In this document: positions 219-23,064 of the stretch, one piece after another
How the letters are laid out: each line of letters starts with the position of its first letter
Numbering within the stretch: the stretch's first letter is position 1
Assembly: GCA_964413715.1 (NCBI GenBank)
Contig: CAYPSN010000001.1
Location: forward strand, 135,573 to 199,572
Direction of reading: 5' to 3'
Origin: an uncultured Candidatus Saccharibacteria bacterium
Lineage (GTDB): Bacteria; Patescibacteriota; Saccharimonadia; CAILAD01; JADZBC01
DNA: 64,000 nucleotides
Position numbers and translations under genes: made by a program
The notes under the pieces: model-generated
What the model was told of the DNA's origin: nothing
Seen by the model: only the letters and a program-made list of their open reading frames with translations
The model's database searches: none

Positions 219-253
219 GTTTTCACTCCTGCGTATAGGGTACGAGTAGTTTG

Positions 254-323
254 AGTATAGCTTGATTGGCCAGATTAGCAACCATAACAGATAATTGACA
301 AAATATAAGGCTTATGGTATTAT
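254..323. promoter_or_regulatory. divergent sigma70-like promoters (minus-strand TTGCTA/TATACT for ORF 1..218; plus-strand TTGACA 295..300 - 17 bp - TATTAT 318..323 for ORF 389..718)
   Basis: hexamers read directly from sequence with canonical spacing. Confidence 0.55.
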
Positions 324-388
324 GTCTAGGTTCAATGTCCACCGATTCTCGTGTGGGCACGAGCCCGCACCTACCCGGGGGAGGCCCC

Positions 389-718
389 ATGTACGAAAAA
401 CTGCTCGCTTCCTGGATCGTGCTTTGCGCGATACTCGGAGGTATCACCTGGAACTTTTACACGAAGTTCCAAGAAGCGAACCGTCTCTACGGGGAGCAAT
501 TCGACGCCACATCTCTTGAGCAGGTCTCTCATGCGATGGACAGAACCATGTTGGCATGTCTGTTGTTCAGCGGGGTTCTCGCTGTCGGAGCGTGCGCTTT
601 CATCGCCCATTACATCGGTTCGGCAAGTGAAGAAGGTTCGGACAGCGCGCAAGATGACGAACCTGACCCAGACACCCCCATGGATGCACCATGGGGCCAT
701 GAGTCGCGAGCGGCCTGA
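389..718 (+). CDS. GC-rich small membrane protein (2 predicted TM helices), ORFan
   Basis: ATG 389 with GGGGGAGG RBS 4 nt upstream; high GC vs flanks; hydrophobic segments; acidic C-terminus; followed by hairpin with TTCG tetraloop. Confidence 0.6.
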   Translation: MYEKLLASWIVLCAILGGITWNFYTKFQEANRLYGEQFDATSLEQVSHAMDRTMLACLLFSGVLAVGACAFIAHYIGSASEEGSDSAQDDEPDPDTPMDAPWGHESRAA

Positions 719-723
719 GGTGC

Positions 724-780
724 GGGCGGGGTGGAGTCTTCGGACTTCACCCCGCCAAACCCGTAATTATCTTTTGACGC
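724..780 (+). terminator. hairpin GGCGGGGTGGAGTC-TTCG-GACTTCACCCCGCC followed by AT-rich tract
   Basis: inverted repeat seen in sequence; T-tract not immediately adjacent so efficiency uncertain. Confidence 0.45.
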
Positions 781-876
781 CACCGTATTGCAGAGTGGTG
801 TTTTTGTTTACCAGTCATCAACAATTGACAGCTCTAAGCATAAGTAGTATGATAAGCGCAACTAAGTAAAACAAAA

Positions 877-1578
877 ATGCCTACTAAAAAATCAATTAAA
901 CCAAAGGGTCGTAAGCGCAAGCGCCAAACCTTCGACAAGCGTCTTGTACTGGCGGCTCTTATTTTAATCGGCCTGCTTGGCTTAGTCGTAGCAGGTCTAG
1001 CACCAGCCAAGACTGCTAAAAGTACCGGCTCACAGACAAAGACAGAACAGCAATCTACTGCATCTTCTACCAAATCCAAACAACCCAAAGCCGCAACGCC
1101 GACTAATAGCTCCGATACACCCAGCAGACCAAGCTCATCATCAAGCTCCCAGAACAAGCAGTCATCAAATAGCGGATCAACTCAGACCAACAACACAGCT
1201 CCCGTCAGCCAGCAGGGCGTTGCAGCTCCTGTATTCACTCCTACAGCTTCGGTTTCAAAAATCTTTGAAGAGATTACTGCCTGTGTACGCGAACGCTACA
1301 TCTTTAGTGGTCAAATTACAGCAAATATGGCCGGCACAGTTAACTGGAACTGGCTTCGTTGGGATGGCGGCACAAGTGGAGTCAGCGGCACGGTCACATT
1401 CGACAGTAATGGCAATACAAATGATGCCATGCCCTCATATGACTTCTGGATCCACCCAAATTATGATGTAAGTGGCTGGGTTGCGCTTCAGCTAACCTGG
1501 TCTGGTGGCAATTACACCACGCCTCACAGTAACTTTACTTATGTCGATGCCGATGTAAACCCAGGCGGCTGCCCTTAG
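877..1578 (+). CDS. membrane-anchored Ser/Thr/Gln-rich secreted protein
   Basis: basic N-terminus then TM helix (LVLAALILIGLLGLVVAGL), long S/T/Q low-complexity linker, C-terminal globular part; backbone-like GC. Confidence 0.6.
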   Translation: MPTKKSIKPKGRKRKRQTFDKRLVLAALILIGLLGLVVAGLAPAKTAKSTGSQTKTEQQSTASSTKSKQPKAATPTNSSDTPSRPSSSSSSQNKQSSNSGSTQTNNTAPVSQQGVAAPVFTPTASVSKIFEEITACVRERYIFSGQITANMAGTVNWNWLRWDGGTSGVSGTVTFDSNGNTNDAMPSYDFWIHPNYDVSGWVALQLTWSGGNYTTPHSNFTYVDADVNPGGCP

Positions 1579-1662
1579 ACTTTAGCAGTTTTGATACTAG
1601 TACGACGCTTTACGCCGGCGCAATTATTTACAAGAATTCACAACTTTCGTTATACTAAACAC

Positions 1663-4982: not shown

Positions 4983-5043
4983 AGCCCAAGTATACCGCTT
5001 GTGCTTAATAAAATCGAGTAAATTATTTCAGGTACGAAAAGAG

Positions 5044-5087
5044 CCCCGGAGGGGAGTACAGGACTCTTCCGGGGCTCACGTGCGTAG
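5044..5087 (-). terminator. terminator of the AGAGCCCCG repeat family (GAGCCCCGG...CCGGGGCTC + TCTTTTCGTA on minus strand)
   Basis: hairpin plus U-tract read on the minus strand. Confidence 0.7.
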
Positions 5088-5099
5088 CCCTTGGTGGTC

Positions 5100-5480
5100 T
5101 CAGCCGAAGTACCAGCTGAAGCCGGCACCCATGATCATGCCTGCCATCAGACAGAGCATGGCTGGCAGGGCGATGGCAGCACGGATCTCGTTCTGCACGA
5201 GGTACGCCGATGGCTGCACCCAGTAGTTGGCGTACTTGGCATTCACCTTGCGGCGAGCGCGCAACCAGCCGAACAGGGCACCGATGTAGCCGCCGATCAA
5301 GGCACCACCGACCGCCCAGAGGAACGGAGTGGTGTTCTCCTGCCCGCCCGACGAACGGGTGGTGTAGAGGAACTTCAGCACCAGCCCCGGATCCATGAAG
5401 CGGATGTAGGTCATCACCGCGATGAGGCCGATGATCAGGCCGATGCCGACCTTGTACAGCACATCCTTCACGGCCGTCAC
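5100..5480 (-). CDS. GC-rich integral membrane protein (3 TM), ORFan
   Basis: GTG start overlaps the stop of the upstream small ORF (GTGA); high GC; hydrophobic. Confidence 0.55.
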   Translation of the reverse strand: MTAVKDVLYKVGIGLIIGLIAVMTYIRFMDPGLVLKFLYTTRSSGGQENTTPFLWAVGGALIGGYIGALFGWLRARRKVNAKYANYWVQPSAYLVQNEIRAAIALPAMLCLMAGMIMGAGFSWYFG

Positions 5481-5587
5481 TTGAGACCACTCAGCGCCCA
5501 GTACAGGACAGCCGAGGTTCCCACGGTGAACAGCGCCGTGAGGACGTTCTTCTGCAGCTCGGTGAGCTGCTTCTTTGCCTTGGCCAC
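5477..5587 (-). CDS. small membrane protein (36 aa) MAKAKKQLTELQKNVLTALFTVGTSAVLYWALSGLK
   Basis: AAGGAGG RBS 4 nt before GTG start; translationally coupled to downstream gene; not in the ORF track (under 60 aa). Confidence 0.45.
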   Translation of the reverse strand: MAKAKKQLTELQKNVLTALFTVGTSAVLYWALSGLK

Positions 5588-5624
5588 AGGGGCCTCCTTG
5601 ATGTAGGGAACTACGAACGTATGC

Positions 5625-5653
5625 ATATTACCATATTACTTATGCTTTGTCAA
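5625..5653 (-). promoter_or_regulatory. sigma70-like promoter TTGACA-17-TAATAT (minus strand) for the 5587..5100 operon
   Basis: read directly; shares the motif TTGACAAA...TATGGTAWTATG with the promoter at 295..323. Confidence 0.5.
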
Positions 5654-5871
5654 TAATATCCTCTCTGCTGCGGCGCAGAAAACATTGCGTTTTTAGACTT
5701 TCGTTCTTTTGAACTCATCAGCATAGAAACACATCTATGGAGTCTCCCGAGGGAGCCCACAATGAGCGCGCTTTTTGTTGCGCGCCCACCATGAGCGTCT
5801 CCTCAGGTGCCTGATTGTACAGGACTTTTTGGACGGATTAGCCGCCCTCTTCGCCTCTTGGGCTTGGGATG

Positions 5872-7605
5872 TCAGCGCTTGCCGAGGATGTGCAGCTCGA
5901 TCGTCGGCCTGATCTTGTTGTCGATCAGAGTGCGGTAGGTGTCCAGCTCGGCGTCCGTTGGGAAGTGCGCCAGCAGGGTGAGCAGCTCGATGGCCAACCA
6001 CTCCTGCAGGTGCATGATCCAGCGGTCGTTTCGAGCCGTGTGCCTGCCGTTGGTCTCGTCGAGCTTGACCCAGTCGGGGTGCCTGATGTTGAGCACCAGG
6101 GTTCCCGTGCTGGACTCGAACTCCCACAGGTGGGCGTTGCCAGCAAGCTCGTCGTAGCGGAACGACAGACCCTGGGAGCTTGCGCTCACAGAGCCCTTCT
6201 TGGTTCCACCCGACCCACCGGGATGCGGCTTGGTTGGGCGTTCGCCCTCACCGCTACCGCCGCCGGGCTTGCGCCCGCCGCTCGTGCCGTTGCCGCCACG
6301 AGTACCTGGCTCGTCATCGCCCGAGGTCTCACCCTCGGCCTTCTCGCTACCTCCGGGGTCCGGAGATGGTGCTCCGAAGCGCTTCCAGTCGGCGTCGGGG
6401 AATTGCTCGCTCAGTCGCTTGAGGCTCTCGTTGGCGAGGTCCTCGTAGCGGGAGCGATCCTGATCTTCCCGTTCCTCCTCGTAGAGCGCCTGCCCGACTT
6501 CCTCGTACCAGGTGCTCAGCACCAAGTACAAGCCGTGCAGGGGATCGTTGTACTTGAAGCTCTCCCGATCATCACGCAGGGTGATGTTCTCACATCGGAT
6601 GTAGCCCTCGAAGTACCCCGAGCAGAGCACGCTGGCAGCGTCGCTGACGAATTCCCAGAACTTGCCGGAGCGAGCCTGGTTGGCAAACGCCGTCATCGTC
6701 ACACCGAAGTCACCAACCTGGCGCATGACCTGCACCTTGCCCTCCCGCCTGCCGCGCTGTTGCGGCGCACGAAAGAGGGTGATGGTGACCTTGCCGGCGA
6801 TCGGGTCGGTGTACTCGACAACGTCGAGCGGATCTCCCTGGAACGACTGAGGTTCGATGTCACAAACCTCCTTGCTGCCGTTCGAGATCAGGGCGATGCG
6901 CACCTCGACACCCTTGCGCTGCATGGCGATGCCGAAGTTCTGACGGATCTCCGACACGAGCACTTCCAGGTCGATACGACTGACATGCCGGTCCTTGGTC
7001 AGGCCGTTCATCTTGATCATGGTCTGGTAGCGAACGCCGAAACGACCGCTCAGTTCACTGCGGAACTGCTGACCAGGATCCGGAAGCTTGTGGATCGACT
7101 TCCACGGGATGTGGAGCGTCTCGTGCTGAACTCGCACCTCTTCTTCTCGGAAGGTCCACACGTGGCCCTTCTTCGCACCACGTGCGATCGAAGCGAAGGT
7201 GTAGGTCTTGCACTTGTCGATTGGAGCCACGAGCCCCAAGCCGAACTCGCCCAGCTTGTCGGCATCCTTGATGGAGTTACCGATGTTGAGCAGAGCCTCG
7301 TTGAAGCCTGCCATCGTGGTGCCCTTGCCGTTGTCGAGCACGATCACCACTCGCTTGTCGAGATCGATACCGACGAAGATCAGGCTGGCGCCTTGATCGA
7401 TGCCGTTCTGAACCATCTCCTTGAGCGCTGCTCGCAGGGTGGGGTACCGATCTGCGTAGTACATGATGGCATTGCCTTGGTGGACACCGGCCGGGGAAGA
7501 CCCCGAACCGGCCTGGACAGCCTCAGCGGGTTCGCCGCTGGGGTCTTCTGTGGGTTCCTCAGCGGGATCGCCGCTGGGGTCATCTGTGGACTCAGCCACG
7601 GTCAC
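5872..7605 (-). CDS. GHKL-superfamily ATPase (HATPase_c_3; MORC/MutL-like ATP-binding fold) with acidic repeat N-terminus, Gly-rich linker and C-terminal domain
   Basis: N-box EMVQNGIDQ (ExxxNxxD), G1 box VLDNGKGTTMAGF (DxGxG), G2 box GEFGLGL present in order; 4-bp start/stop overlap with upstream gene; high GC. Confidence 0.75.
   Translation of the reverse strand: MTVAESTDDPSGDPAEEPTEDPSGEPAEAVQAGSGSSPAGVHQGNAIMYYADRYPTLRAALKEMVQNGIDQGASLIFVGIDLDKRVVIVLDNGKGTTMAGFNEALLNIGNSIKDADKLGEFGLGLVAPIDKCKTYTFASIARGAKKGHVWTFREEEVRVQHETLHIPWKSIHKLPDPGQQFRSELSGRFGVRYQTMIKMNGLTKDRHVSRIDLEVLVSEIRQNFGIAMQRKGVEVRIALISNGSKEVCDIEPQSFQGDPLDVVEYTDPIAGKVTITLFRAPQQRGRREGKVQVMRQVGDFGVTMTAFANQARSGKFWEFVSDAASVLCSGYFEGYIRCENITLRDDRESFKYNDPLHGLYLVLSTWYEEVGQALYEEEREDQDRSRYEDLANESLKRLSEQFPDADWKRFGAPSPDPGGSEKAEGETSGDDEPGTRGGNGTSGGRKPGGGSGEGERPTKPHPGGSGGTKKGSVSASSQGLSFRYDELAGNAHLWEFESSTGTLVLNIRHPDWVKLDETNGRHTARNDRWIMHLQEWLAIELLTLLAHFPTDAELDTYRTLIDNKIRPTIELHILGKR
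7523..7594 (-). repeat. tandem 36-bp direct repeat inside the 5' end of the GHKL ATPase gene (encodes acidic DPSGDPAEEPTE/DPSGEPAEAVQ repeats)
   Basis: cagcgggttcgccgctggggtcttctgtgggttcct / cagcgggatcgccgctggggtcatctgtggactcag. Confidence 0.8.
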
Positions 7606-8318
7606 CTTCCTTCTCGGTGTTGTGCACGAGCACGCTCGGAGTTGAGCGCGTTCAGGACTTGGGAAAGGTTGAACAAGCTGTTGGCCAGCTCGAACAACTC
7701 TTCGCCCGCCAGCTCACGCAGGCGGGAGCGCTGGGCTGGAGTCCAAGATTCCAGTGCCAGCAAAGCAAGGGGGGATACCCCTTTCACCATCGCTGCCAGT
7801 ACGGGCACCAGCACGTCGAATGCTGGCGCTTCCGCCAACACCTCTGGGGTTGCCTCTGGAAGCGGGGGAAGAGCACTTGGACTGAACGCACGCAGCTTGT
7901 CCTGCAGTCCGCTCTTGGCGTACTGCAAGCTTTCTCCGTACATCTCCTCCAGGCCCTCGACGCCCACAGCAGGCTGCATGGGCTCACGCCCACGCAGGAT
8001 CTGCAGCACGTCTTGGTTGTTCTTGACCCCGCTCAGCTGCTTGGCCTCATCGATCGTGATGACCGAGTAGGCGTACAGCTCGGCGAGGTACTGGTTGAAC
8101 TGCGGAATCCGAAGCTCGGGGATCTCATACCCGGCAGCCAGCACGAAGTGCCAGAGCCGAATCTCGAGGGTTCCCTGAGCCGGATTGCTGTTGGCTGTCC
8201 AGCGTTCCACGGAAGACCGCGCAGCCCCCACGAAATCACAGACGGGCTGTGTTCCATGATGGGTTACGAAGTCCGCCAGGGACGGCTGCAGCCACCGAAA
8301 TGGCTTGTGAACCTGCAT
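7602..8318 (-). CDS. hypothetical protein (238 aa), upstream partner of the GHKL ATPase
   Basis: ATG 8318 with AAGGAGCC RBS; longer track ORF start at 8378 lies inside promoter/operator sequence, so shorter start preferred; high GC. Confidence 0.6.
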   Translation of the reverse strand: MQVHKPFRWLQPSLADFVTHHGTQPVCDFVGAARSSVERWTANSNPAQGTLEIRLWHFVLAAGYEIPELRIPQFNQYLAELYAYSVITIDEAKQLSGVKNNQDVLQILRGREPMQPAVGVEGLEEMYGESLQYAKSGLQDKLRAFSPSALPPLPEATPEVLAEAPAFDVLVPVLAAMVKGVSPLALLALESWTPAQRSRLRELAGEELFELANSLFNLSQVLNALNSERARAQHREGR

Positions 8319-8387
8319 GGCTCCTTCTTGGGGGTTGATGGGTGGGTGGATTAGCGAACTAATCATCCCTTTTTTCAAAGGGCGATC

Positions 8388-8441
8388 GTCCGTAAACGGA
8401 CGTCTGTATTATTCTATCATCATATCTGTTTTTGTCAATCA
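8388..8441 (-). promoter_or_regulatory. promoter TTGACA(8441..8436)-16-TAGAAT(8418..8413) with perfect palindrome CGTCCGTAAACGGACG (8388..8403) at about +1, candidate operator
   Basis: read directly from sequence. Confidence 0.5.
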
Positions 8442-8663
8442 TTTTTTACGTTTATTATTGTTAACAAACGTAAATAGTTTAAAGATAGGCCGTAAGTGAT
8501 TTTACTTATATTAATTCGTCATGTGTCGTTGACAATTATGTAGTGCTTATTAGCAAGAATGACATTGCCCACCAACTCTCTCAAGAACCTACAGAATGAG
8601 CAGGGATTGCACCGCAGGAGTATAATATAAGTGTAAGGAGAGATACTCTCCACAGGAGGTTCT

Positions 8664-9176
8664 ATGGCTACCATATCATCTAACCTGCCGCTACTCGACA
8701 AGAGCACATCGACAACAGATTGCTGCCCCATCTTCCGGCCGAAAGACTGGGATGGCAAGGTCTTTACCTTCAAAGACAAGCCGTTTATTAAAGACCATAC
8801 GGTGAGTTTTTTGCACATTCCGCTCAATATGAGCAAGGTAATGGCGCGACTTTCTAAAACAGCTGAAGATGCTCATGCGAGTGCCGAGGACTTCATCCTC
8901 TTAAGCCAAGACACCTCTCCCTGGCATGCCGACCACTATTATGCGGTGTCGAAATCAATCAGTGGCGCCGAAAACGTCACACTAACTGGCACGTATTACG
9001 CCAAAGTATACGAAGGCGAGTACAAAGACATGACTAAGTGGTATAAGGACTTGATTGCTGCCGTAGAGCAGCGTGGCGATGAGCTCCAAGAAATCTACTT
9101 TTATTACACCACCTGCCCTAAGTGCACCAAGGTGTATGGCAAAAACTATGTGCTGGGCTTTGCAAAAATAGGGTAG
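8664..9176 (+). CDS. hypothetical protein with C-terminal CPKC motif, intermediate GC
   Basis: ATG with AGGAGG RBS; no family assigned. Confidence 0.6.
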   Translation: MATISSNLPLLDKSTSTTDCCPIFRPKDWDGKVFTFKDKPFIKDHTVSFLHIPLNMSKVMARLSKTAEDAHASAEDFILLSQDTSPWHADHYYAVSKSISGAENVTLTGTYYAKVYEGEYKDMTKWYKDLIAAVEQRGDELQEIYFYYTTCPKCTKVYGKNYVLGFAKIG

Positions 9177-9193
9177 CCAGCGACATACTGAAT

Positions 9194-9236
9194 ACGAAAA
9201 GAGCCCCGACTGGAGTCGTGGACTCTAATCGGGGCT
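9194..9236. terminator. bidirectional terminator of the AGAGCCCCG family
   Basis: GCCCCGA...TCGGGGC stem flanked by A/T tracts; between convergent genes. Confidence 0.7.
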
Positions 9237-9258
9237 TGTAGGGCCGTTGGTGCGGTGG

Positions 9259-9756
9259 CTAGACCGCGCGCAGGTGGGGAGCGGAGAGTTCCTCGGCCAA
9301 CTGCTGCAGAGCCTGCTGGTCCGCTTGCAGCTGAGCGAGCTGCTTGCGGCAGGTGGCGGCCTTATCTCTGTGGCTGGTGTAGCCCTGCGCCAGCATGTCC
9401 TCGCTGTACTGCAGCCGCTGCTGCACCGCCTTGATGGTCTCGCTGAGGATGGCCATGCGCTGCAGCAAGCAGGCCGCCACAGCCTGCCGGCTGTACTCGC
9501 CGAGCTTGGCGATCAGCTCCGGCTTGCCCTGGACCTGATCCAGGTAAGCGACGGCGGCGGCCACCTCCGCGTAGTGCTGGGTCGCCTTGCCGATCCGCTC
9601 CAGCGCTCGGTCGACGTCACTGTCGAACCGCGCCATCCAGGTGGTGTGGCGCTGCTCATGCAGCACCGCCAGGACGGCGATGAGCAGCAGCAGGAGGATC
9701 ACGGCGATCCCACCCAACAGCCACTCGGTCTTGGTCAGCTCTTCGAAGATGCCCAT
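9259..9756 (-). CDS. GC-rich membrane-anchored coiled-coil protein
   Basis: start at MGIFEEL (ATG 9756) with GAAAGGCGG RBS; N-terminal TM helix then Ala/Gln/Leu-rich helices. Confidence 0.55.
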   Translation of the reverse strand: MGIFEELTKTEWLLGGIAVILLLLLIAVLAVLHEQRHTTWMARFDSDVDRALERIGKATQHYAEVAAAVAYLDQVQGKPELIAKLGEYSRQAVAACLLQRMAILSETIKAVQQRLQYSEDMLAQGYTSHRDKAATCRKQLAQLQADQQALQQLAEELSAPHLRAV

Positions 9757-9803
9757 CGGGCACCACCGCCTTTCATTGTTTGTAGGGTACAACGGTCTGG
9801 TGA

Positions 9804-9832
9804 ATTATATCTTACATTTATTTATTTGTCAA
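9804..9832 (-). promoter_or_regulatory. consensus sigma70 promoter TTGACA-17-TATAAT (minus strand)
   Basis: exact consensus hexamers with 17-bp spacer. Confidence 0.6.
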
Positions 9833-9916
9833 TTGTATTTGACATATGTAAATCGGATTATCTTGCATGCATAATGGGCATTTTGCAAGTCATCTTATCC
9901 ATTTTGTTAAACGATA

Positions 9917-9945
9917 TTGACATATTCACTGCTATTGTATATAAT
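9917..9945 (+). promoter_or_regulatory. consensus sigma70 promoter TTGACA-17-TATAAT (plus strand)
   Basis: exact consensus hexamers with 17-bp spacer, then AAGGAGGGGG RBS and ATG 9982. Confidence 0.6.
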
Positions 9946-9981
9946 GCAAAGACTTCGCTCTAGACCCAAGGAGGGGGAGCC

Positions 9982-10338
9982 ATGACCGAAGACCGAATCT
10001 TCGAACTCGAGGTGGTCCGCGCCACCATTCCCGGACAGGCGCCCGGGCTCGTCATCTACCTGGTGGAGAGCCACGGCCTGTTGGCGGTGCCGCGCGAGAT
10101 CTACCGATCGAGCAACACCGGCCAGGCCATCGTGCTGCAGCATGGTACCGTCCCCAGCTTCGCAGCATGGGAGCCCGGTACCTTCACCGAGATCCGTGGC
10201 TACGAGGCCCTGCGCGAGCAGATCATGCGCGTGCTGGACCCGCCAGAAGATCTGATCAAGGATGCGAACACGCTGGCCGACACGATGGTCACCCATGTTC
10301 GTTCTGAGATCGAGCCCATGCCCGGGCAGTACGCGTAG
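9982..10338 (+). CDS. GC-rich hypothetical protein (118 aa), ORFan
   Basis: strong RBS; high GC; terminator downstream. Confidence 0.55.
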   Translation: MTEDRIFELEVVRATIPGQAPGLVIYLVESHGLLAVPREIYRSSNTGQAIVLQHGTVPSFAAWEPGTFTEIRGYEALREQIMRVLDPPEDLIKDANTLADTMVTHVRSEIEPMPGQYA

Positions 10339-10365
10339 CGAAGATCCGCCCCTGCATTGGGGCAC

Positions 10366-10403
10366 CCAGCCTCCCGGCTTACCCCGGGAGGCTTTCGCTT
10401 TCT
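10366..10403 (+). terminator. terminator AGCCTCCCGG-cttacc-CCGGGAGGCT + TTTCGCTTTC
   Basis: 10-bp perfect stem plus U-tract. Confidence 0.65.
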
Positions 10404-10427
10404 CAAGCAAAGGCAAAAAACAATACA

Positions 10428-10456
10428 TTGACTTTAGTGCTATATTCTTGTATTAT
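10428..10456 (+). promoter_or_regulatory. sigma70-like promoter TTGACT-17-TATTAT
   Basis: read directly. Confidence 0.55.
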
Positions 10457-10517
10457 ATGCCTCTGCAGATCAACTGTTTCGTACCTTAACCATTCCGTTC
10501 CGACCCAAAGGGGAAAG

Positions 10518-11264
10518 ATGTTCACTCGCTACACCAACTCACACCCAGCTGCGAAGGTGGTGATCTTCGCAGCAAGCCTCGGCCTCATGTACTGGGCCTT
10601 CTACCTCATCTACGGCAACCACACCTCAGCGATCCTGCTGGTGGGCAGCGTGGCCGTGCACGAGCTCGGGCACCTGGCGGCCTACCTGTACTACGGCCTG
10701 CGTGGTGGCATCATCTTCCTGCCGCCAATTGGCGCCGTGATGATCCCCAGCGATCAAGAAGCTGCCAAGCGCATGCAGGAGTGGCGCAAGGGCATCGTGG
10801 CGTTCGCCGGCCCGGCCGTGAACATCGGCCTGGCTGCCGTCGGCCTGGTCATGATCGTGTTCATGCCCGAGTGGCGCAACTTCGGCCTGATGATGACGTC
10901 GCTGAATGGCACCCTGGCGGCCTTCAACCTTCCCCCCTTCAGCTTGCTGGACGGGGGAAACGTCGCCAAGGCGTTGTTCAACAGCGCTGATGAGGCGGGT
11001 GACCGTCGCATCGTCTGGTACCTGACCCGGTCCATGATCGGTTGCTTCGTGGCCATGGCGCTGTTCGGCACGGTGTCGCTCATGCCGGTGTTGTTCATCT
11101 GGCGGCTGCACACTGCGGCCAACGACGACGACCCCTTGGCCTGGCGAGAGCCGACGGCCATGAAGAAGCGTGAGCTGCACCAGATGACGCGGCTCTACGC
11201 CGCAGCTGCCGTGGTGACGTTCTTCATCGCCGCGGTGTTCCGGTACTGGAACGACTACCGCTAG
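10518..11264 (+). CDS. peptidase M50 (site-2 protease-like) family membrane metalloprotease
   Basis: HELGH zinc-binding motif in a TM helix (VAVHELGHLAAYL), multi-TM architecture; ATG 10518 with AAAGGGGAAAG RBS; high GC. Confidence 0.7.
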   Translation: MFTRYTNSHPAAKVVIFAASLGLMYWAFYLIYGNHTSAILLVGSVAVHELGHLAAYLYYGLRGGIIFLPPIGAVMIPSDQEAAKRMQEWRKGIVAFAGPAVNIGLAAVGLVMIVFMPEWRNFGLMMTSLNGTLAAFNLPPFSLLDGGNVAKALFNSADEAGDRRIVWYLTRSMIGCFVAMALFGTVSLMPVLFIWRLHTAANDDDPLAWREPTAMKKRELHQMTRLYAAAAVVTFFIAAVFRYWNDYR

Positions 11265-11965: not shown

Positions 11966-12054
11966 CGACATCAGCCCGCATGGGCCGTCTGCCGGCGCGT
12001 CAGTCCGGCTCTTCCCAAGTTCATAATTTGAAAATTGTGAGTTTAGGAAGGTAT

Positions 12055-12105: not shown

Positions 12106-12117
12106 GGCCAACTGGCA

Positions 12118-12600
12118 CTATCGGCGAAAGGACTGGGACCACTCCGACGCATCCATGGCGTCTTGTACGGCCATGTCGGTCATTTCGCGCTCGATGACCT
12201 CGCGTCGGATCCACGGGACAACCCCGTAGAAGTAGAAGATCAGGAGCAGGACGACCACCGCCCTGACTGCCAATTTGGCGATTCCGGACGCTTGGTAGCC
12301 GGTGTCATTCAAGACCGCCCAAATGCCCCCGAGGCAGATGGAGAGCAGCATGAATACCGCCACACCCATCAACGCCAGGATCGGCATAAGCCAGCACAGT
12401 CGCACTCGGAGCGTCTTGACCTGCTGAAGTCTCTGCTGCAAGCTGCCGATGCGTCGCGTCAGACTCACGGGTCGTTGCGGATACGGAAGCTGAACCCAGA
12501 GCGCCAACAGCTCATCGTGCGATGCCTGATAGCGCTCTTCGGCGTCCTGTAAGCGCATCAACACCGGGAACATTTCCCGGTTGAATTTCGTGTTTTTCAA
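12118..12600 (-). CDS. GC-rich membrane protein (2-3 TM), ORFan
   Basis: TTG start with GGAGGA upstream (alternative ATG 9 codons later). Confidence 0.5.
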   Translation of the reverse strand: MKNTKFNREMFPVLMRLQDAEERYQASHDELLALWVQLPYPQRPVSLTRRIGSLQQRLQQVKTLRVRLCWLMPILALMGVAVFMLLSICLGGIWAVLNDTGYQASGIAKLAVRAVVVLLLIFYFYGVVPWIRREVIEREMTDMAVQDAMDASEWSQSFRR

Positions 12601-12632
12601 CGTTCCTCCAAACGGGATATCACGGTCGTAAC

Positions 12633-12661
12633 ATTCTATAATGTTATAGGCATTATGTCAA
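12633..12661 (-). promoter_or_regulatory. sigma70-like promoter TTGACA-17-TAGAAT (minus strand)
   Basis: same -10 variant (aTAGAAT) as the 8413..8441 promoter. Confidence 0.55.
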
Positions 12662-12687
12662 TATATTACCTTGATATCTTAAGCGCC

Positions 12688-12733
12688 GACGAAAAGAGCC
12701 CCGAGGGGAGCAAGGGGCTCTCTTCGGGGCTCG
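12688..12733 (-). terminator. terminator, AGAGCCCCG family
   Basis: GAGCCCCGAGGGGAGCAAGGGGCTC plus TTTTCG on minus strand. Confidence 0.7.
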
Positions 12734-12749
12734 TTAGCCCTGCGGCGTC

Positions 12750-13109
12750 CTACACGCCAGGGTCAAGGCCGTGAGCGTGGAGCATGTCCGCACTCTCGCG
12801 CAGGAAGCTTTCGCCATCGGGTGAAAGCTGGTACAGGCGTGTGGTCCAGTCTCCCTGAACCAACCGAGGTGACGGCCACACGTAGCCTTCCTCGGCCTGA
12901 CGATTCAAGAGGTTCTGAAGGAAGTACACATCGCACTTGAGGTCGTCTGCCAGGTGTCGAAGCTCCTTGGGGCGACCGACGCGCTTGAGGTGGCAGAGCA
13001 CCACCCAGTAGTTGTTGGCTTCGAACTTCTTGTTAGCACGGATGCGCCACGCCCACACTCCCATGAGGAAGAAGACGAGGCACATCGTTATCTGAATGAG
13101 GAGTATCAC
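12750..13109 (-). CDS. GC-rich small membrane protein, ORFan
   Basis: GTG start at 13109 with GGAGGT upstream. Confidence 0.5.
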   Translation of the reverse strand: MILLIQITMCLVFFLMGVWAWRIRANKKFEANNYWVVLCHLKRVGRPKELRHLADDLKCDVYFLQNLLNRQAEEGYVWPSPRLVQGDWTTRLYQLSPDGESFLRESADMLHAHGLDPGV

Positions 13110-13157
13110 ATGACCTCCGTGGCCACTCGATGTTTGGAAGGGTCTATACGAAGTCGA

Positions 13158-13185
13158 ATTATATACTAAATATAAGATTAGTCAA
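13158..13185 (-). promoter_or_regulatory. sigma70-like promoter TTGACT-16-TATAAT (minus strand)
   Basis: read directly. Confidence 0.55.
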
Positions 13186-13217
13186 TGATTTCTATTGAAG
13201 CAGAGCTACGCTTATGC

Positions 13218-13246
13218 TTGTAAAAGAAGGTTGATGATTAGATAAT
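13218..13246 (+). promoter_or_regulatory. sigma70-like promoter TTGTAA-17-GATAAT
   Basis: read directly. Confidence 0.45.
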
Positions 13247-13285
13247 CACATAGTCCAAAGGCCACAACGAGTACTAGGAGGTAAC

Positions 13286-13468
13286 GTGGCAGTATTGAAG
13301 GAATTTTCGCTTCTGCGAACCGTGTGCGATGCATGTGGCGGCAACTACATGGCCATCGAGTCCACCGACGATCCCACCAAGGTGCAGCTGCTCTGCAGCT
13401 GCCGAGCAGTCCGCCTGATGTCCAGACAGAGCCCGGTGATCCGGCAAGCTCTGGAGGACTCGGAATGA
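13286..13468 (+). CDS. small Cys-rich (zinc-ribbon-like CxxC...CxC) protein, 60 aa
   Basis: GTG start 5 nt after AGGAGG. Confidence 0.5.
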   Translation: MAVLKEFSLLRTVCDACGGNYMAIESTDDPTKVQLLCSCRAVRLMSRQSPVIRQALEDSE

Positions 13469-13866
13469 ACCCCGTGGTTCTGCGCGTACGCTATCGGCCC
13501 ATCGGCATCGCCGAGGCCAAGGCACGTCAGCTGAGCAACGACAATGAAGTCGTACGTAGCGTCATGGCGGCGGTGGCGTTTCGTAGTTTCGGTGACAAGG
13601 TCGATGGGAAGCTCAAGGACCACGTGCGCCTGGAGTTCACTGCGGCCAGCCCGCTGGACTGCAACTGCCCAGCGATGTCGTTCGAGCTGGAGTGGACTGA
13701 TCCGGACATGACCCAGCGCAAGCTCGATGCGCGTTGCGATTCGCTCGCAGCCGCCCTGGTAGACCTCATGTCTGGACCGATCGACATGCTGGTAGTAGTG
13801 CGGGTAGGCAGCATGACGTCGCAGCTGGAGTCTTTCAAGCGACAGGCTACATCAGCCGCGCAATAA
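13465..13866 (+). CDS. GC-rich hypothetical protein (133 aa), ATGA-coupled to the upstream small protein
   Basis: ATG 13465 with GGAGGA 6 nt upstream, overlapping stop of the previous ORF; the track ORF 13324..13866 is in the same frame but starts earlier. Confidence 0.5.
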   Translation: MNPVVLRVRYRPIGIAEAKARQLSNDNEVVRSVMAAVAFRSFGDKVDGKLKDHVRLEFTAASPLDCNCPAMSFELEWTDPDMTQRKLDARCDSLAAALVDLMSGPIDMLVVVRVGSMTSQLESFKRQATSAAQ

Positions 13867-14023
13867 CAAACCACTTTTTGGCAAAGGAGGCCACGTAAAA
13901 GCCCCTTGCTGAAAGGTGGTTTTTACGTTGGTGGAGTTTGGAACTGATGTGAATCACAAAGTCCTAACGCACACATATATGATGTGTAACTTTGCGATTC
14001 CCTGATAGGGTATAATGTAGGTA

Positions 14024-19729: not shown

Positions 19730-20374
19730 CTAGCGATACCGATAGCGCCTCAGCCGTCGCCAGTAGGGCCAACGCCGCTTGAACTTGCAGCGCAAGCACT
19801 TGCAGACGTTCCAGTGCGTCCGACTGAACCGCTGGCAACGCCAACAGTGGCAGTGGCTGTGTTGCCGCCTTGGAGCGTCGCGCCAGTTCTTCCAGCGCGA
19901 AAACAGTGAGTTGTCATACCAGTACAGCCGCAGCTTGAAGCACTTATACAAGCACCAGCCCACTAGCTGCTCGAGACACAAACCAAGCAGCAAGGATCCG
20001 AAAGCGATCGCTGGCCAGGAATTAGCCAACGTAAAGCTGAACTTTTCACCTCCGCCCAAGTCGAGCATCCACAGAGTGTAGAGCCCACCGAGCGAGATGA
20101 GCAGACCAACTAGCCCCAACCAGCGCAGCGAACTACGCAAGCGTACTTCGCCAGCCTGATCATCGGCCTGGTCGTAGAACGGCGTGCGTTCATCCTTGCT
20201 TGAACCGAAGTGATCAGTATGAGTCTCTTCAACGATCAGGCCCCGCAGCCTATCCGCCTGCGGTGCTGGCTGGGCCATGAAGGCTTCGAGCGTGACCTCA
20301 AGCACAGGGTCCTCGGTGCCAAAAACCTCCTCGACAGCTGCGAAGAGGTCGTCTGGTACTTCATCGTCAGCCAC
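19730..20374 (-). CDS. membrane protein with acidic N-terminus, 2 TM helices and Cys/Arg/Trp-rich C-terminal tail (CxCxxC x2); 3' part uncertain
   Basis: GTG start with AAGGAGGT RBS; promoter TTGATT-17-TATAAA at 20417..20445 (minus); the C-terminal 75 aa also reads open in another frame. Confidence 0.4.
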   Translation of the reverse strand: MADDEVPDDLFAAVEEVFGTEDPVLEVTLEAFMAQPAPQADRLRGLIVEETHTDHFGSSKDERTPFYDQADDQAGEVRLRSSLRWLGLVGLLISLGGLYTLWMLDLGGGEKFSFTLANSWPAIAFGSLLLGLCLEQLVGWCLYKCFKLRLYWYDNSLFSRWKNWRDAPRRQHSHCHCWRCQRFSRTHWNVCKCLRCKFKRRWPYWRRLRRYRYR

Positions 20375-21269: not shown

Positions 21270-21335
21270 ATGTCAAAGCACGAACTTCGCGCATTTTCAT
21301 ACTATTACACCGACACCTTTCGTGGCGGCTATTAG
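21270..21335 (+). CDS. leader peptide MSKHELRAFSYYYTDTFRGGY (21 aa; 4 Tyr, 2 Phe) of a putative transcription attenuator
   Basis: leaderless ATG; Tyr-Tyr-Tyr run; 3' end (GTGGCGGCT) is complementary to the 5' arm of the downstream terminator (AGCCGCCAC). Confidence 0.5.
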   Translation: MSKHELRAFSYYYTDTFRGGY

Positions 21336-21367
21336 CATGTATTAAAGCTCATAAACAAACTATAAGT

Positions 21368-21390
21368 CAGCCGCCACACGGCGGTTTTTT
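21368..21390 (+). terminator. attenuator terminator AGCCGCC-ACAC-GGCGG + TTTTTT, 19 nt before aroQ ATG
   Basis: hairpin plus T6. Confidence 0.7.
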
Positions 21391-21409
21391 ATTTACAAGG
21401 AATTTAAAC

Positions 21410-21709
21410 ATGAACATACAAACAACTACATTAACAACTCTTCGGACTAAGCTTGATGCAATCGACGACCAGTTGATAAATATATTGGCAGAGCGGTTTG
21501 AACTCACGAGTCAGGTAGGCGAATACAAAGCCAAACACCATCTTCCTGCTATCGATTTGCAGCGAGAAGCAGAGCAGTTTACTCGAATTAGTGAACTTGC
21601 CCTAGCGAAAGGCCTCGACCAAGACTTCGCACGGTCCTTCTTGAGGCTGATCATTGACGAGGTCGTGCGTAATCACGAAGCAATCCGAAAAGATCAGAAC
21701 CATGTGTAA
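21410..21709 (+). CDS. aroQ: chorismate mutase (AroQ class)
   Basis: LRTKLDAIDDQLINILAERFELTSQVGEYK matches the AroQ fold consensus; 99 aa. Confidence 0.8.
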   Translation: MNIQTTTLTTLRTKLDAIDDQLINILAERFELTSQVGEYKAKHHLPAIDLQREAEQFTRISELALAKGLDQDFARSFLRLIIDEVVRNHEAIRKDQNHV

Positions 21710-22409
21710 ATCAATCACATCTATCGGAATAATCGGCAAAGGTGCATTCGGTACACTAGCATTTAGCCTGGTGCCCAGCGGTGTTGCTCGGCACACGTTT
21801 GGGCCAGAGGATAACCAAGAGCAATTCTTGAAAGTTGCGCACTGCGACGCCATTCTTCTTGCCATACCTCTAGGCTCCTACGAGGATGTATTAACAAGAC
21901 TCAAACCACATCTACACCCGGCAACCCTGCTGATTGATGTGTGCTCGGTTAAACTAGGGCCAGCGGAAATCATTGCCAGGCTGCTACCTGAACACAAGGA
22001 GGTCTTACTTACTCATCCACTATTTGGCCCCGAGACGTACTCACGAAGTGGCAGCAGTGCCACGCTCGTCGTTTGCACAGAGCTAACTGGGAAATCAAAG
22101 GATTTTATTAGGTTCTGCAGGGAACAGCTAAATATGAGCATAGTCGCCATGACACCCGAGAAGCATGATAAGGAAATGGCGTTCGTGCATGCCATGACGT
22201 TTTTTATAGCTCGTGGTCTGCGGGAAATCAATCTTGATCATCTCGTGCTTGAGACGCCGTCATTCCGGCATATCAAGCAACTAGCCCATCTGGATAGGAT
22301 ACATAGTCAGGAACTTTTTGAGACCATTGAGCTTGGCAACCCCTATGCAGCTATGGTCAGAGAACACCTCATCGCCAACCTGGAGCGAACCAACAATTCT
22401 CTAAAATAG
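21702..22409 (+). CDS. tyrA: prephenate dehydrogenase
   Basis: IGIIGKGAFG NAD-binding motif; start overlaps aroQ stop (ATGTGTAA). Confidence 0.8.
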   Translation: MCKSITSIGIIGKGAFGTLAFSLVPSGVARHTFGPEDNQEQFLKVAHCDAILLAIPLGSYEDVLTRLKPHLHPATLLIDVCSVKLGPAEIIARLLPEHKEVLLTHPLFGPETYSRSGSSATLVVCTELTGKSKDFIRFCREQLNMSIVAMTPEKHDKEMAFVHAMTFFIARGLREINLDHLVLETPSFRHIKQLAHLDRIHSQELFETIELGNPYAAMVREHLIANLERTNNSLK

Positions 22410-22482
22410 TAAATAACCTTAAGCGAAACGCCCACCTCCATGGGCGCTTCGTAAAGCGATGGAAGTGGGCGGGGAGCTGGCC

Positions 22483-22926
22483 CTAGTTGCGGACCACCTC
22501 GATGCACGGTTCCGTGACGGGGCCGACGACGAGCATCTGCGGCTCGCGGTAGACGCCGGTCGGGAGGTCGAGGAATGGGGCATCTGGCCCGTTGAGGAAC
22601 ATGTTGTCCTCGTCATCCCAGGATGGCTCATCTGCCAGCGCCATGGCGATCACCTCGTAGGTGTAGCCGGTCAGGATCTGGAAGTACTTCCGCACCGTCT
22701 CCTCGTCAGCTCGATCGTTGCCGTCAGCTTCGTTCATGAAGTCCGCCAGCTCGTAGCGATCTCGACAAGACTGGTTGTAGGTCACCCGCACGAAGTGCGT
22801 CATGCCGTTCTCGATGCAGAAGGACTGCACTCTCTCCGATGGAACGTCACCGATGACCAACAGCACGTGCTGGCTGGATCCCGAGTGGTCGGGAATGTCG
22901 ATGTATTCTCCTCCGGCTGCACCCAT
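22483..22926 (-). CDS. GC-rich hypothetical acidic protein (about 147 aa)
   Basis: start at MGAAGGEY (AAGGAGG 5 nt upstream) preferred over the longer track ORF; promoter TTGACA-17-TAATAT at 22998..23026 (minus). Confidence 0.5.
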   Translation of the reverse strand: MGAAGGEYIDIPDHSGSSQHVLLVIGDVPSERVQSFCIENGMTHFVRVTYNQSCRDRYELADFMNEADGNDRADEETVRKYFQILTGYTYEVIAMALADEPSWDDEDNMFLNGPDAPFLDLPTGVYREPQMLVVGPVTEPCIEVVRN

Positions 22927-23064
22927 GGCTGCCTCCTTGGTCCTGCTACTGGCTTCGGCCAGCACCTTACACACTGCGTGCAAGGAATTAGAGCATTATA
23001 TTAGTATAAATAACCTATTTTGTCAATGCTTACGGTTTTACAACAAGAGGAGTAAAATAGTGGT

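Follow-up and report, generated by a model that had tools for sequence, protein, structure and literature searches.

GC-rich small-gene cassettes interleaved with a housekeeping backbone in a Saccharibacteria chromosome, with a possible origin within the phylum

The DNA analysed here (the window, 64,000 nucleotides of contig CAYPSN010000001.1) belongs to the chromosome of a soil-type member of Saccharibacteria (TM7) of ~48% G+C. It carries two classes of genes, a backbone and a set of small GC-rich genes, the latter arranged as units with their own promoters and terminators that are partly conserved and partly turned over across species and that have GC-rich relatives of the same architecture. 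With moderate confidence, we interpret these units as moron-like accessory cassettes from a GC-rich pool within the phylum, which would have entered at hot spots, passed between species and ameliorated slowly.

Recomputation bore out the compositional mosaic proposed in a preliminary description of this DNA, giving two gene classes and not a uniform composition. Backbone genes have a GC of 0.43–0.54 and a GC3 of 0.38–0.59, whereas cassette genes reach 0.55–0.67 and 0.62–0.91. All 20 intervals listed in that description are GC-enriched, but its ~28 cassettes become ~21 GC-rich genes in ~19 units across the whole window, and a GC3 close to 90% holds for about six genes only (median ~0.80; five are intermediate, at 0.62–0.73). 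The interval 0.4–27.1 kb contains 19 of the ~21 genes, which occupy 44% of it. Because sampling noise in GC3 is ~0.02–0.05 at 110–580 codons per gene, gaps of 0.25–0.4 far exceed chance. The switch at gene boundaries is indeed sharp and coincides with the CDS ends: GC is ~0.63 within cassette genes versus 0.41–0.48 in the 200 nt upstream, and downstream of the stops it runs from 0.65 to 0.57 over ~60 nt (the terminator hairpin zone) and then drops to 0.41. Codon usage differs accordingly between cassettes and backbone (TTC 0.94 versus 0.30, ATC 0.88 versus 0.30, AAG 0.95 versus 0.47), and the cassette proteins contain less K, I and N and more R. GroEL/GroES, AhpC and MetK have backbone-type composition, so the cassette codon usage is not that of highly expressed genes. 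The products recognised earlier as M50, GHKL and ThyX proteins were confirmed. The ICMT/PEMT gene (4488–4982; GC3 0.54), previously counted as a cassette, is of backbone type, as is a Bact_hydrolase gene (8664–9176) within the densest cassette block. The supposed HupB tail is no more than a Lys-rich stretch at the N-terminus.

The view that the cassettes are independent transcription units also stands, as they have their own near-consensus sigma-70 promoters and hairpin terminators (Table 1). In this layout, a GC-rich CDS follows a sigma-70-like promoter that lies in AT-rich DNA and is closed by a hairpin terminator, an arrangement that would make expression independent of the neighbouring genes. 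The promoters follow TTGACA-17-TATAAT in DNA of 30–45% GC, as do those of the window backbone and of the native genes of a 60% GC Saccharibacteria-like contig (L048). Between 1 and 20 kb, 38 sigma-70-like sites were found versus 11.2 ± 3.2 in shuffled sequence, many of them directly upstream of cassettes; no such excess was seen at 20–28 kb or 42–60 kb. In addition, an imperfect palindrome of ~45 nt, GAGCCCCG...CGGGGCTC, recurs between cassettes and is conserved across species. These palindromes carry an A-tract and a T-tract and can be read as putative bidirectional intrinsic terminators.

Table 1. GC-rich cassettes and associated elements (positions within the window; L numbers denote related loci)
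Feature	Position	Strand	GC3	Promoter-like site	Terminator or palindrome	Relatives and remarks
Intermediate cassette, 109 aa, 2 TM-like segments	389..718	+	0.62	295-323		Weak homologues in L001/L002/L005
ORFan cassette, 125 aa	2860..3237	+	0.80	2787-2814		Syntenic orthologue in L001/L002, 66–68% aa identity; paralogues adjoin DUF2779 gene in L001, L003, L004, L006
Hot-spot island, ICMT/PEMT gene to DUF2779 gene	5000..13900					11 GC-rich genes and 1 backbone-type gene
Cassette, 126 aa, 3 TM-like segments	5100..5480	-	0.87	5653-5625	5034-5078, palindromic, terminator-like	
Conserved structured 3' RNA of GHKL module	5685..5871	-				
Type III hammerhead ribozyme candidate	5747-5693					End of GHKL 3' RNA
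GHKL ATPase (HATPase_c_3), 577 aa	5872..7605	-	0.80			Second gene of mobile pair
GHKL partner gene, 258 aa	7602..8378	-	0.70	8438-8411		No Pfam match
Cassette, TM segment and coiled-coil-like region	9259..9792	-	0.89-0.91	9832-9804, perfect TTGACA-17-TATAAT	9194-9239, palindromic, terminator-like	
Cassette, 118 aa	9982..10338	+	0.83	9917-9945, perfect consensus	10368-10393, terminator	Distant homologues, likewise GC3-rich, in L005 and L002
M50-family membrane peptidase-like cassette	10518..11264	+	0.88	10428-10456	11318-11340, terminator	
Phage family phrog_26039 cassette	11567..11965	+	0.87	11503-11531		61% identity to Variovorax phage protein
Cassette, 160 aa, 2 TM-like segments	12118..12600	-	0.78	12661-12633	12055-12100, bidirectional, palindromic, terminator-like	
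Cassette, 119 aa, N-terminal TM segment	12750..13109	-	0.76	13185-13158	12689-12734, palindromic	Two homologues in tandem in L006
Intermediate GC-rich stretch	13286..13866	+	0.72-0.73			Two reading frames, 13286-13468 and 13462-13866; gene structure tentative
Intermediate ORFan cassette, 149 aa	15940..16389	+	0.69			Syntenic orthologue in L001/L002, 56% identity; synonymous sites saturated
ORFan cassette, 120 aa	16553..16915	+	0.84	16454-16482	16943-16964, terminator	Same locus throughout: 83% identity in L003, 32% in L001/L002
Intermediate cassette, 135 aa	18219..18626	-	0.62		18210-18175, terminator	Orthologue in L001/L002, 57% identity
Cassette, Lys-rich N-terminal tail and globular domain, 183 aa	19033..19584	-	0.79	19652-19624		Orthologues: L001/L002 63%, L003 41%
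Intermediate cassette, 214 aa; acidic N-terminus, TM segments, Cys/Arg-rich tail	19730..20374	-	0.70			82% identity in L003
ORFan cassette, 147-166 aa	22483..22926	-	0.81	23026-22998		74% identity in L003, where a tandem paralogue is also present
ORFan cassette, 159 aa	24869..25348	+	0.81		25365-25399, terminator	Missing from corresponding slot in L003
Double-domain ThyX, 545 aa	25494..27131	+	0.76		27194-27217, terminator	Nearest relative (54%) in L049, a 57% GC contig
Isolated cassette 3' of dprA, 112 aa, one TM segment	42642..42980	+	0.72			
Isolated cassette, 179 aa, distant HbpS/GlcG-like family	58728..59267	+	0.86		59289-59330, palindromic, terminator-like	Syntenic orthologue in L044, 78% identity

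The closest loci (L001–L006) are all from Saccharibacteria MAGs and all show the GC-rich cassette pattern, which is not present in more distant Saccharibacteria of 30–43% GC. Most cassettes outside 5.0–13.9 kb occupy the same loci in sister species, where their GC3 is 0.65–0.9, so recent strain-specific insertion does not apply to them. Lineage-specific insertion, as suggested earlier, holds for part of the region, namely 5.0–13.9 kb and 24.9–25.3 kb only; the slot between the ICMT/PEMT and DUF2779 genes spans just 1.1–2.5 kb in L001–L003 and contains other GC-rich cassettes. By composition, the cassettes form a distinct class of accessory genes. Synonymous divergence of several cassettes is 0.50–0.78 of saturation versus 0.84–1.05 in flanking backbone genes, and such values may be signs of cassette exchange between species.

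The abrupt GC steps and the metagenomic source would also fit reads of a high-GC organism misassembled or misbinned into a low-GC contig. However, junctions of the mosaic were reproduced in independent assemblies: a second assembly is 100% identical across 15190–20161 and a third sample 99.2% identical across 16576–18696, several junctions included in each case. This agreement of 99–100% excludes a chimeric assembly. Further, independent MAGs of sister species carry the same cassettes in the same mosaic, and the GC steps match gene ends, promoters and terminators. The probability of an artefact is practically negligible.

The two-gene GHKL module, with its conserved hammerhead candidate, has about five different locations in different Saccharibacteria. 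Together with its 3' RNA, the pair lies in the ICMT–DUF2779 slot in the window and in a NUDIX–PGI slot in L045–47, while in L048, L049, L052 (a named Ca. Microsaccharimonas) and L053 it adjoins GroEL, L7/L12, DUF1761 or GyrB. The pair with its RNA is thus mobile within the phylum. The hammerhead candidate has the CUGAUGAG and CGAAA cores and three stems with compensatory changes, and scores 32–39 bits, under the Rfam gathering threshold of 48.5. Prokaryotic hammerheads have been associated with phages and small non-conserved ORFs (PMC6155905). The candidate resembles the type III hammerheads linked to phage-like small ORFs in its cores, three stems and mobile-type accessory gene neighbours, but differs in its sub-threshold score and in its position at the 3' end of a longer RNA behind the GHKL operon. 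No published description was found of a hammerhead in this setting, at the tail of a conserved longer RNA downstream of a GHKL ATPase operon in Saccharibacteria.

A high-GC donor, as first proposed, is the simplest account of the codon usage and amino-acid shift; the suggested actinobacterial or actinophage origin is unsupported. Genes of a high-GC actinobacterial host or of actinophages, perhaps phages interacting with both partners, would in that case have been inserted singly into the epibiont. Cultivated Saccharibacteria use Actinobacteria as growth hosts, and their natural competence has been experimentally demonstrated (PMC10633639). Small ORFan units with their own promoters are reminiscent of phage morons, and one cassette is a member of a phage family (phrog_26039). 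Cassette RSCU correlates at r = 0.90 with L048 and with an actinobacterial replicon alike, so codon usage cannot separate the candidate donors; at 2-fold codons, the cassettes (TTC 0.96, AAG 0.95) are nearer to the actinobacterial reference than to L048 (0.76 and 0.70). Against such a donor, tblastn searches with ~20 cassette proteins, covering 50,697 phage genomes and 72,556 plasmids, matched nothing but the broad phrog_26039 family, whose nearest relatives are in phages of Proteobacteria, and IMG/VR had no relatives of the cassette families. Of the eight ORFan families tested, seven form only 1–6 clusters in a set of 1.84 billion representative proteins, and these clusters all stem from rare metagenomic contigs, despite the heavy sequencing of Actinobacteria. 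The two traceable families (GHKL pair and long ThyX) reside in Saccharibacteria-type contigs, the promoters and their AT-rich setting match those of the backbone and L048, and the synteny of many cassettes is kept across species. We consider an actinobacterial source quite unlikely. L048 itself has a GroEL GC3 of 0.78, an intergenic GC of 0.45 and TTGACA-N17-TATAAT promoters, and thus shows the architecture of the cassettes natively. The homologues in high-GC contigs are distant (33–34% for GHKL, 54% for ThyX); most ORFan families showed none in a high-GC context.

The persistence of high GC3 raises the possibility, improbable in our judgement, that it is actively maintained, either by GC-biased heteroduplex repair at often-transformed loci or by synonymous or mRNA selection. 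Retention exceeds the prediction of simple neutral amelioration: in L045–47, the GHKL pair has nearly saturated synonymous sites but a GC3 still 0.26 to 0.30 above the backbone, both members of same-locus cassette pairs at 28–35% amino acid identity are GC3-rich, and the 58728 gene has a homologue with a GC3 of 0.43 versus ~0.2 even in a genome of 31% GC. The excess within the same families is similar (+0.2 to +0.35) at backbone GC3 values of 0.2, 0.4 and 0.5, and at 2-fold sites the GHKL pair agrees with a stationary model (30:5 observed, ~28:5 expected). Signs of frequent exchange between species in the same genes and the presence of dprA and recO (uptake/recombination) in the window also accord with maintenance. 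In contrast, 4-fold sites of the GHKL pair show 37 GC>AT versus 14 AT>GC polarised changes, a net GC>AT excess over the ~25:17 expected at stationarity (P ~0.01), and GC3 declines with divergence age, from ~0.8 in lineage-specific and recently shared cassettes to 0.62–0.69 in two with saturated divergence. The shift in amino acid composition goes beyond codon selection alone, genes of classically high expression lack a high GC3, and there is no excess in L053 or in ThyX genes from low-GC relatives. For biased gene conversion in bacteria, the effects reported are far below 0.3 in GC3. It is very unlikely that the clade ancestor was GC-rich throughout and that the backbone drifted to ~48% GC with the cassettes as laggards. 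The mosaic is limited to one clade of 52–54% GC, and related lineages span 30–60% GC, so large GC shifts have occurred in the phylum. The backbone is nevertheless at equilibrium (161 GC>AT versus 165 AT>GC polarised 4-fold changes) with saturated synonymous sites, fast-evolving accessory genes have no reason to lag, and the cassettes have been gained, lost and relocated between loci.

DNA acquired by bacteria tends to be richer in AT than the genome, whereas the window cassettes are GC-richer. They otherwise share with genomic islands and islets (Lawrence and Ochman framework) the unusual composition and codon usage, a content of accessory genes or ORFans, conserved flanking genes, presence/absence polymorphism among relatives and 4-fold decay towards host composition. 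They differ in being of single-gene scale and alternating with core genes across 25 kb, mostly syntenic across species, without integrase, tRNA target or flanking direct repeat, and in keeping their GC3 longer than simple amelioration predicts. Like phage morons, they are autonomous promoter–gene–terminator units of deviant composition encoding small, non-essential-looking proteins; unlike morons, they lie in a cellular chromosome amid housekeeping genes and not in a prophage, without nearby phage structural or integration genes, and only one has phage homologues. The window genes scanned included no integrase, transposase or phage structural gene. Integron and super-integron arrays are similar in their runs of small, mostly promoter-independent-looking ORFans with a recurring palindrome between them and in the varying cassette content at one locus. 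The window, however, has no integron integrase or attI site, its cassettes lie in both orientations with a promoter each, and its palindromes, with their A-tract and T-tract, are terminator-like.

In the preferred reading, a backbone of ~48% GC that is stable in composition is interleaved with moron-like cassettes, which lie mostly at a small number of hot spots flanked by conserved genes. Besides its one or two GC3-rich genes, each cassette supplies the sigma-70 promoter and the hairpin terminator for them. The cassettes represent small gene families endemic to Saccharibacteria, with products including membrane proteins, a Lys-rich DNA-binding-like protein, the GHKL module with its hammerhead, an M50 peptidase, a long ThyX and ORFans. 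Their donors may have been Saccharibacteria lineages of ~60% GC or more, and/or mobile elements or phages shuttling between them. Entry would have been by DNA uptake and recombination at the hot spots, in keeping with the dprA and recO genes of the window and with the natural competence of Saccharibacteria (PMC10633639), followed by swaps among sister species, and cassette GC would then drift slowly towards the backbone value. The cassettes are real and shared with sister species, and they do not look like recent loot from an actinobacterial host.

The window has an overall GC content of 50.9% and is strongly heterogeneous, and a codon-model gene call divides its genes into two classes that are separated by a gap. 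Backbone genes (GC 0.43–0.54; GC at third codon positions, GC3, 0.38–0.59) were labelled by Pfam as metK, aroQ-tyrA, an ABC transporter, topA, the dcw cluster, two class II aminoacyl-tRNA synthetase (aaRS) genes, Der, dprA, recO and AhpC. The other class consists of about 21 small genes, here called cassettes (GC 0.55–0.67, GC3 0.62–0.91), of which 19 lie within 0.4–27.1 kb, where they make up 44% of the sequence, and two are isolated. Relative synonymous codon usage of cassettes and backbone correlates with r = 0.43; the gap is extreme at two-fold sites (TTC 0.94 vs 0.30, ATC 0.88 vs 0.30, AAG 0.95 vs 0.47) and milder at four-fold sites, and cassette amino-acid usage is shifted, with K, I and N down and R up. 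All twenty intervals named as GC-rich in the preliminary description were enriched on recomputation. Of the products it recognised, GHKL, M50 and ThyX stand and are the only Pfam matches among the cassettes (for ThyX, the PF02511 Thy1 domain above the Pfam threshold, 128.5 bits in two stretches), while the ICMT/PEMT gene is of backbone type. TM-like segments occur in 11 of 22 cassette products.

The cassettes are real genes under relaxed constraint, with dN/dS ratios of 0.2–0.6 compared with 0.03–0.18 in the backbone. These ratios, GC1/GC2/GC3 periodicity, amino-acid-level conservation and independent gene calls led us to reject the GC-rich stretches being non-coding or mis-called. GroEL/ES, AhpC and MetK are backbone-type, so cassette usage is not that of the optimal codons of highly expressed genes. 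Three long ORFs antisense to GC3-rich genes (the longest 733 aa) lack the GC1/GC2/GC3 pattern expected of a gene and are not genes; such ORFs are expected by-products of stop-codon depletion in GC3-rich genes. Nor is the mosaic an artefact of chimeric assembly: an independent scaffold is 100% identical to the window over 15190–20161 and another sample 99.2% identical over 16576–18696, each crossing several junctions, and the metK product occurs on six contigs from several samples. Among the backbone-composition genes are dprA, recO and a sigma-70-r4/HARE-HTH gene adjoining an 894-aa TrwB/VirD4-like ATPase (DUF87/TrwB_AAD_bind), with DNA-uptake, recombination and type IV coupling-protein-like functions; the last two also occur as a pair in two homologous contigs (L042 and L044).

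Features of the window and their counterparts in relatives (L001–L003, sister Saccharibacteria with the same locus; L041 and L044–L047, homologous loci of other genomes)
Feature	Window position (strand)	Counterpart	Amino-acid identity	GC3 in relative	Remark
Cassette	2860–3237	L001/L002	66–68%	0.81	
Cassette	15940–16389	L001/L002	56%	0.70	
Cassette	16553–16915	L003; L001/L002	83%; 32%	0.81–0.84	
Cassette	18219–18626	L001/L002	57%		
Cassette	19033–19584	L001/L002; L003	63%; 41%	0.87–0.89	
Cassette	19730–20374	L003	82%		
Cassette	22483–22926	L003	74%		
Cassette	24869–25348				missing from its slot in L003
Isolated cassette	42642–42980				
Isolated cassette (58728 protein)	58728–59267	L044	78%	0.85	
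58728-protein homologue		L041 3962–4438	45%	0.43	Logan SRR27370447_1571; neighbours' GC3 0.15–0.25
GC-rich overlapping frames	13286–13468, 13462–13866				possibly two small genes, or a single one with a frameshift
GHKL ATPase	5872–7605 (-)				
GHKL partner gene	7602–8378 (-)				
phrog_26039 family gene	11567–11965				
ThyX cassette	25494–27131				
Antisense ORFs, not genes	5869–8070 (+), 9247–9963 (+), 58650–59258 (-)				
Perfect TTGACA-17-TATAAT sites	9804–9945				two, back to back
Palindrome copies	5034–5078, 9194–9239, 12055–12100, 12689–12734, 59289–59330				all five adjoin a cassette
GHKL 3' RNA, about 190 nt	5685–5871 (-)	L045 11702–11910; L046 6476–6677; L047 11207–11409			
Hammerhead ribozyme candidate, type III	5747–5693				ends the GHKL 3' RNA
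Structured RNA candidate, about 360 nt	20455–20815 (-)	L003 16370–16735			
ORF overlapping the RNA candidate	20236–20682				probably spurious
Low-divergence tract	19900–22900	L003 15800–19550			
K-channel-like gene	20855–21193				inside low-divergence tract; saturated
SAM riboswitch (RF00162)	17030–17131 (+)	L001, L003			52.3 bits; upstream of metK
dprA	41726–42571				
sigma-70-r4/HARE-HTH gene and TrwB/VirD4-like ATPase	45673–49395				
recO	60740–61447				

At the ends of cassette genes GC steps from 0.41–0.48 upstream to about 0.63 inside, stays high for about 60 nt past the stop codon and then drops to 0.41. Consensus scans predicted 38 sigma-70-like sites in the first 20 kb, compared with 11.2 ± 3.2 in shuffled sequence, most of them immediately 5' of a cassette, and also hairpin-plus-T terminators 3' of cassettes; no such excess of sites was seen in 20–28 kb or 42–60 kb. 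The same promoter type precedes the backbone genes topA, a sigma factor gene and mraZ. Taken together, the GC step, the promoter-like sites and the terminators suggest that a cassette is an autonomous promoter–gene–terminator unit, and the preliminary description of independent transcription units in either orientation agrees with these predictions at most cassettes. Further, cassette 3' ends in the window, in L001–L006 and in L044 repeatedly carry a palindrome of about 45 nt, GAGCCCCG...CGGGGCTC, which is composite, (A)AAAGAGCCCCGA...GGGGCTCTTTTCGGGGCT. Some copies are 95–97% identical between species, and the palindrome reads as a putative bidirectional terminator.

Among species-representative genomes, a search with the DUF2779 gene returned 31 loci. 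The six closest (68–76% amino-acid identity) belong to Saccharibacteria/Saccharimonadia MAGs and all six have the same mosaic, which is absent from twenty-odd more distant Patescibacteria of 29–43% GC. A literature search yielded no description of a mosaic of this kind in Saccharibacteria. Many cassettes are syntenic in the relatives and keep a high GC3 there (Table). Presence at conserved loci is patchy for the cassette at 24869 and for the 9-kb block from ICMT to DUF2779 (5.0–13.9 kb), which in the three sister genomes is replaced by 1.1–2.5 kb with other GC-rich cassettes; most cassettes outside these two are conserved in synteny. Synteny, the replaced block and the missing cassette together mark the region as a series of hot spots at which cassettes turn over, and not as a row of strain-specific insertions. 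Two of the sister genomes (L001 and L002) are different species-representative MAGs whose tblastn coordinates and identities coincide over about 11 kb (locus coordinates ~9400–20700) and whose upstream sequences differ; a very recent exchange may have taken place, or the two genomes may be closely related.

Synonymous divergence between species reaches 0.84–1.05 of saturation in the backbone and 0.50–0.78 in several cassettes. A sliding comparison with the third sister genome, L003, revealed a mosaic of tracts that includes backbone genes: aroQ-tyrA has a dS of 0.3–0.4, and metK, DUF2779 and the ABC transporter are saturated. In one tract of 3 kb (Table) divergence is much below that of the rest of the region, a pattern that indicates mosaic inter-species recombination. 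From this tract mosaic and the lower divergence of cassettes we infer that inter-species recombination is common and affects cassettes more often than the backbone. In the GHKL pair, polarised four-fold singletons among four genomes comprise 37 GC-to-AT and 14 AT-to-GC changes, compared with a stationary expectation of about 25:17 (P ~0.01); polarised four-fold changes in the backbone are 161:165. Two-fold sites of the pair (30:5) are consistent with stationarity, and the test is only moderately informative, as four-fold sites reject stationarity and two-fold sites do not. Also, GC3 is about 0.8 in lineage-specific or recently shared cassettes and 0.62–0.69 in two with saturated divergence. 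Together, the divergence, four-fold substitution and GC3–age data favour import followed by slow decay. The excess GC3 is nevertheless retained better than a neutral model predicts, and a force maintaining cassette GC is for this reason a serious, if unlikely, alternative.

The origin of the cassettes was sought among homologues. The preliminary description had pointed to the actinobacterial host or actinophages, and dual-host phages have been proposed (PMC10746230), but homology lends this donor no support and we regard it as improbable. Searches of phage genomes and plasmids with the cassette proteins (tblastn) gave no match besides the phrog_26039 family gene, which is matched best by a Variovorax phage (61%) and by Stenotrophomonas phages; the family also occurs in viral contigs of 38–42% GC, and its one match in a Euzebya megaplasmid (48%) is exceeded by those in phages of Proteobacteria. 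Viral-contig scans with the GHKL, M50, Lys-rich, 58728 and ThyX proteins found no relatives. Seven of eight ORFan families have only 1–6 clusters among 1.84 billion representatives (index-free search), all on rare metagenomic contigs, in collections that carry no taxonomy for the ORFan matches and cover actinobacterial chromosomes only indirectly through those representatives. The only large family of the eight is that of the 58728 protein, which is distantly HbpS/GlcG-like. The GC enrichment of this family holds against backgrounds that differ widely; one homologue lies in a genome of 31% GC (L041; Table).

Traceable relatives were obtained for GHKL and ThyX only, all in Saccharibacteria-type contigs, the high-GC ones at 33–54% identity. 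The GHKL ATPase has 18 relatives, of which seven were inspected in context. In L045–L047 the pair (238 aa plus GHKL) lies between NUDIX and PGI, near groESL, with GC3 of 0.67–0.83 vs 0.38–0.57 in the backbone; in L052, named Ca. Microsaccharimonas, it occupies another locus (0.66–0.80 vs 0.34–0.46), and in L053 it has no GC3 excess. Distant GHKL versions occur in a natively GC-rich setting in L048 (60% GC, GroEL GC3 0.78) and L049 (57% GC), two Saccharibacteria-like contigs (ENA ERZ27267672 k141_516357 and Logan SRR16630543_1392, respectively) that document lineages of much higher GC in the phylum than those in culture. Intergenic DNA of L048 is AT-rich (0.45) and carries consensus promoters, so that this contig natively has the architecture of the cassettes. 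A metagenome scan with ThyX returned three loci only; the window ThyX has its closest relative in L049 (54%), where a Tmk-ThyX fusion of 845 aa was observed, and is 44% identical to ThyX genes of ordinary, low GC3 in contigs of 41% GC. Codon usage is uninformative on the donor, because cassettes correlate with L048 (r = 0.90) and with an actinobacterial replicon equally well.

The cassettes resemble several known systems in part. With horizontally acquired islands they share deviant composition and codon usage and, at the two loci named, patchy presence; no integrase-type match was found among cassette genes (Pfam, PHROG, PADLOC), and the window contains no tRNA and no flanking direct repeats besides the terminator-like palindromes. 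Like phage morons, most carry their own predicted promoter and terminator around a single gene. Morons, however, sit in phages or prophages, whereas the cassettes adjoin metK, aroQ-tyrA, the ABC transporter, DUF2779, the dcw cluster and aaRS genes, and no phage structural genes were found near them. Integron arrays have an integrase (IntI) and attI, and their cassettes are promoterless, lie in one orientation and each end in an attC-like imperfect palindrome; here no recombinase matched among the cassette and backbone genes scanned, the cassettes lie in both orientations with their own predicted promoters, and the recurrent palindromes that follow several of them look like terminators. The GHKL module was not called as a known defence system, with only weak PADLOC similarity of the GHKL domain to TmtA.

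We lean, with roughly even confidence, to moron-like accessory units drawn from a GC-rich gene pool of Saccharibacteria. The pool would be higher-GC lineages of the phylum and/or their mobile elements, from which cassettes would be taken up and recombined into hot spots; they would also pass between sister species and ameliorate slowly. Saccharibacteria are documented to be naturally competent (PMC10633639), and the window contains the uptake and recombination genes dprA and recO. A more specific form of GC maintenance, in which the GC-rich state is actively upheld in a dedicated exchangeable gene class of this clade and the palindromes serve as swap points of an integrase-free cassette system, seems to us rather improbable. 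Conceivable mechanisms of maintenance are GC-biased repair during frequent transformation-mediated allele replacement and selection on synonymous sites that would distinguish these transcripts, such as a translational programme based on codon usage and linked to life on a GC-rich host.

Two candidate RNA elements also emerged. Behind the GHKL operon lies a conserved structured 3' RNA, which accompanies the module from locus to locus and has a type III hammerhead ribozyme candidate at its end, scoring 32.0–39.4 bits independently in four genomes compared with the Rfam RF00008 gathering score of 48.5. Its CUGAUGAG and CGAAA cores are invariant and stems I and II contain compensatory changes; double compensatory changes affect 6 of 49 pairs. 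The candidate fits the known link of prokaryotic hammerheads to phage-like DNA and small ORFs (PMC6155905). The second element, a candidate structured RNA, is 98–100% identical to its counterpart in L003, compared with 70–94% in the flanks, and is absent from the same slot in L001 and L002. Its minus strand has a stable fold (z = -2.96) ending in a terminator hairpin followed by UUUUUG, and matched no Rfam family and no tmRNA by ARAGORN. The hammerhead-bearing RNA and this ultra-conserved candidate may be new RNA elements.

Saccharibacteria are reduced-genome epibionts, and their accessory genes, almost all unannotated, probably decide host range and survival. A GC3 about 0.3 above the backbone flags the flexible gene set at single-gene resolution across the whole clade, and the genes it marks are for the most part endemic to the phylum and move between species. 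This flag gives a workable way to select candidates for host-interaction and defence genes. The result argues against host-to-epibiont gene capture, at least in this clade, and raises the population-genetic question of why these genes stay GC-rich for so long when the backbone is at equilibrium near 50% GC3, which is testable with existing metagenomes.
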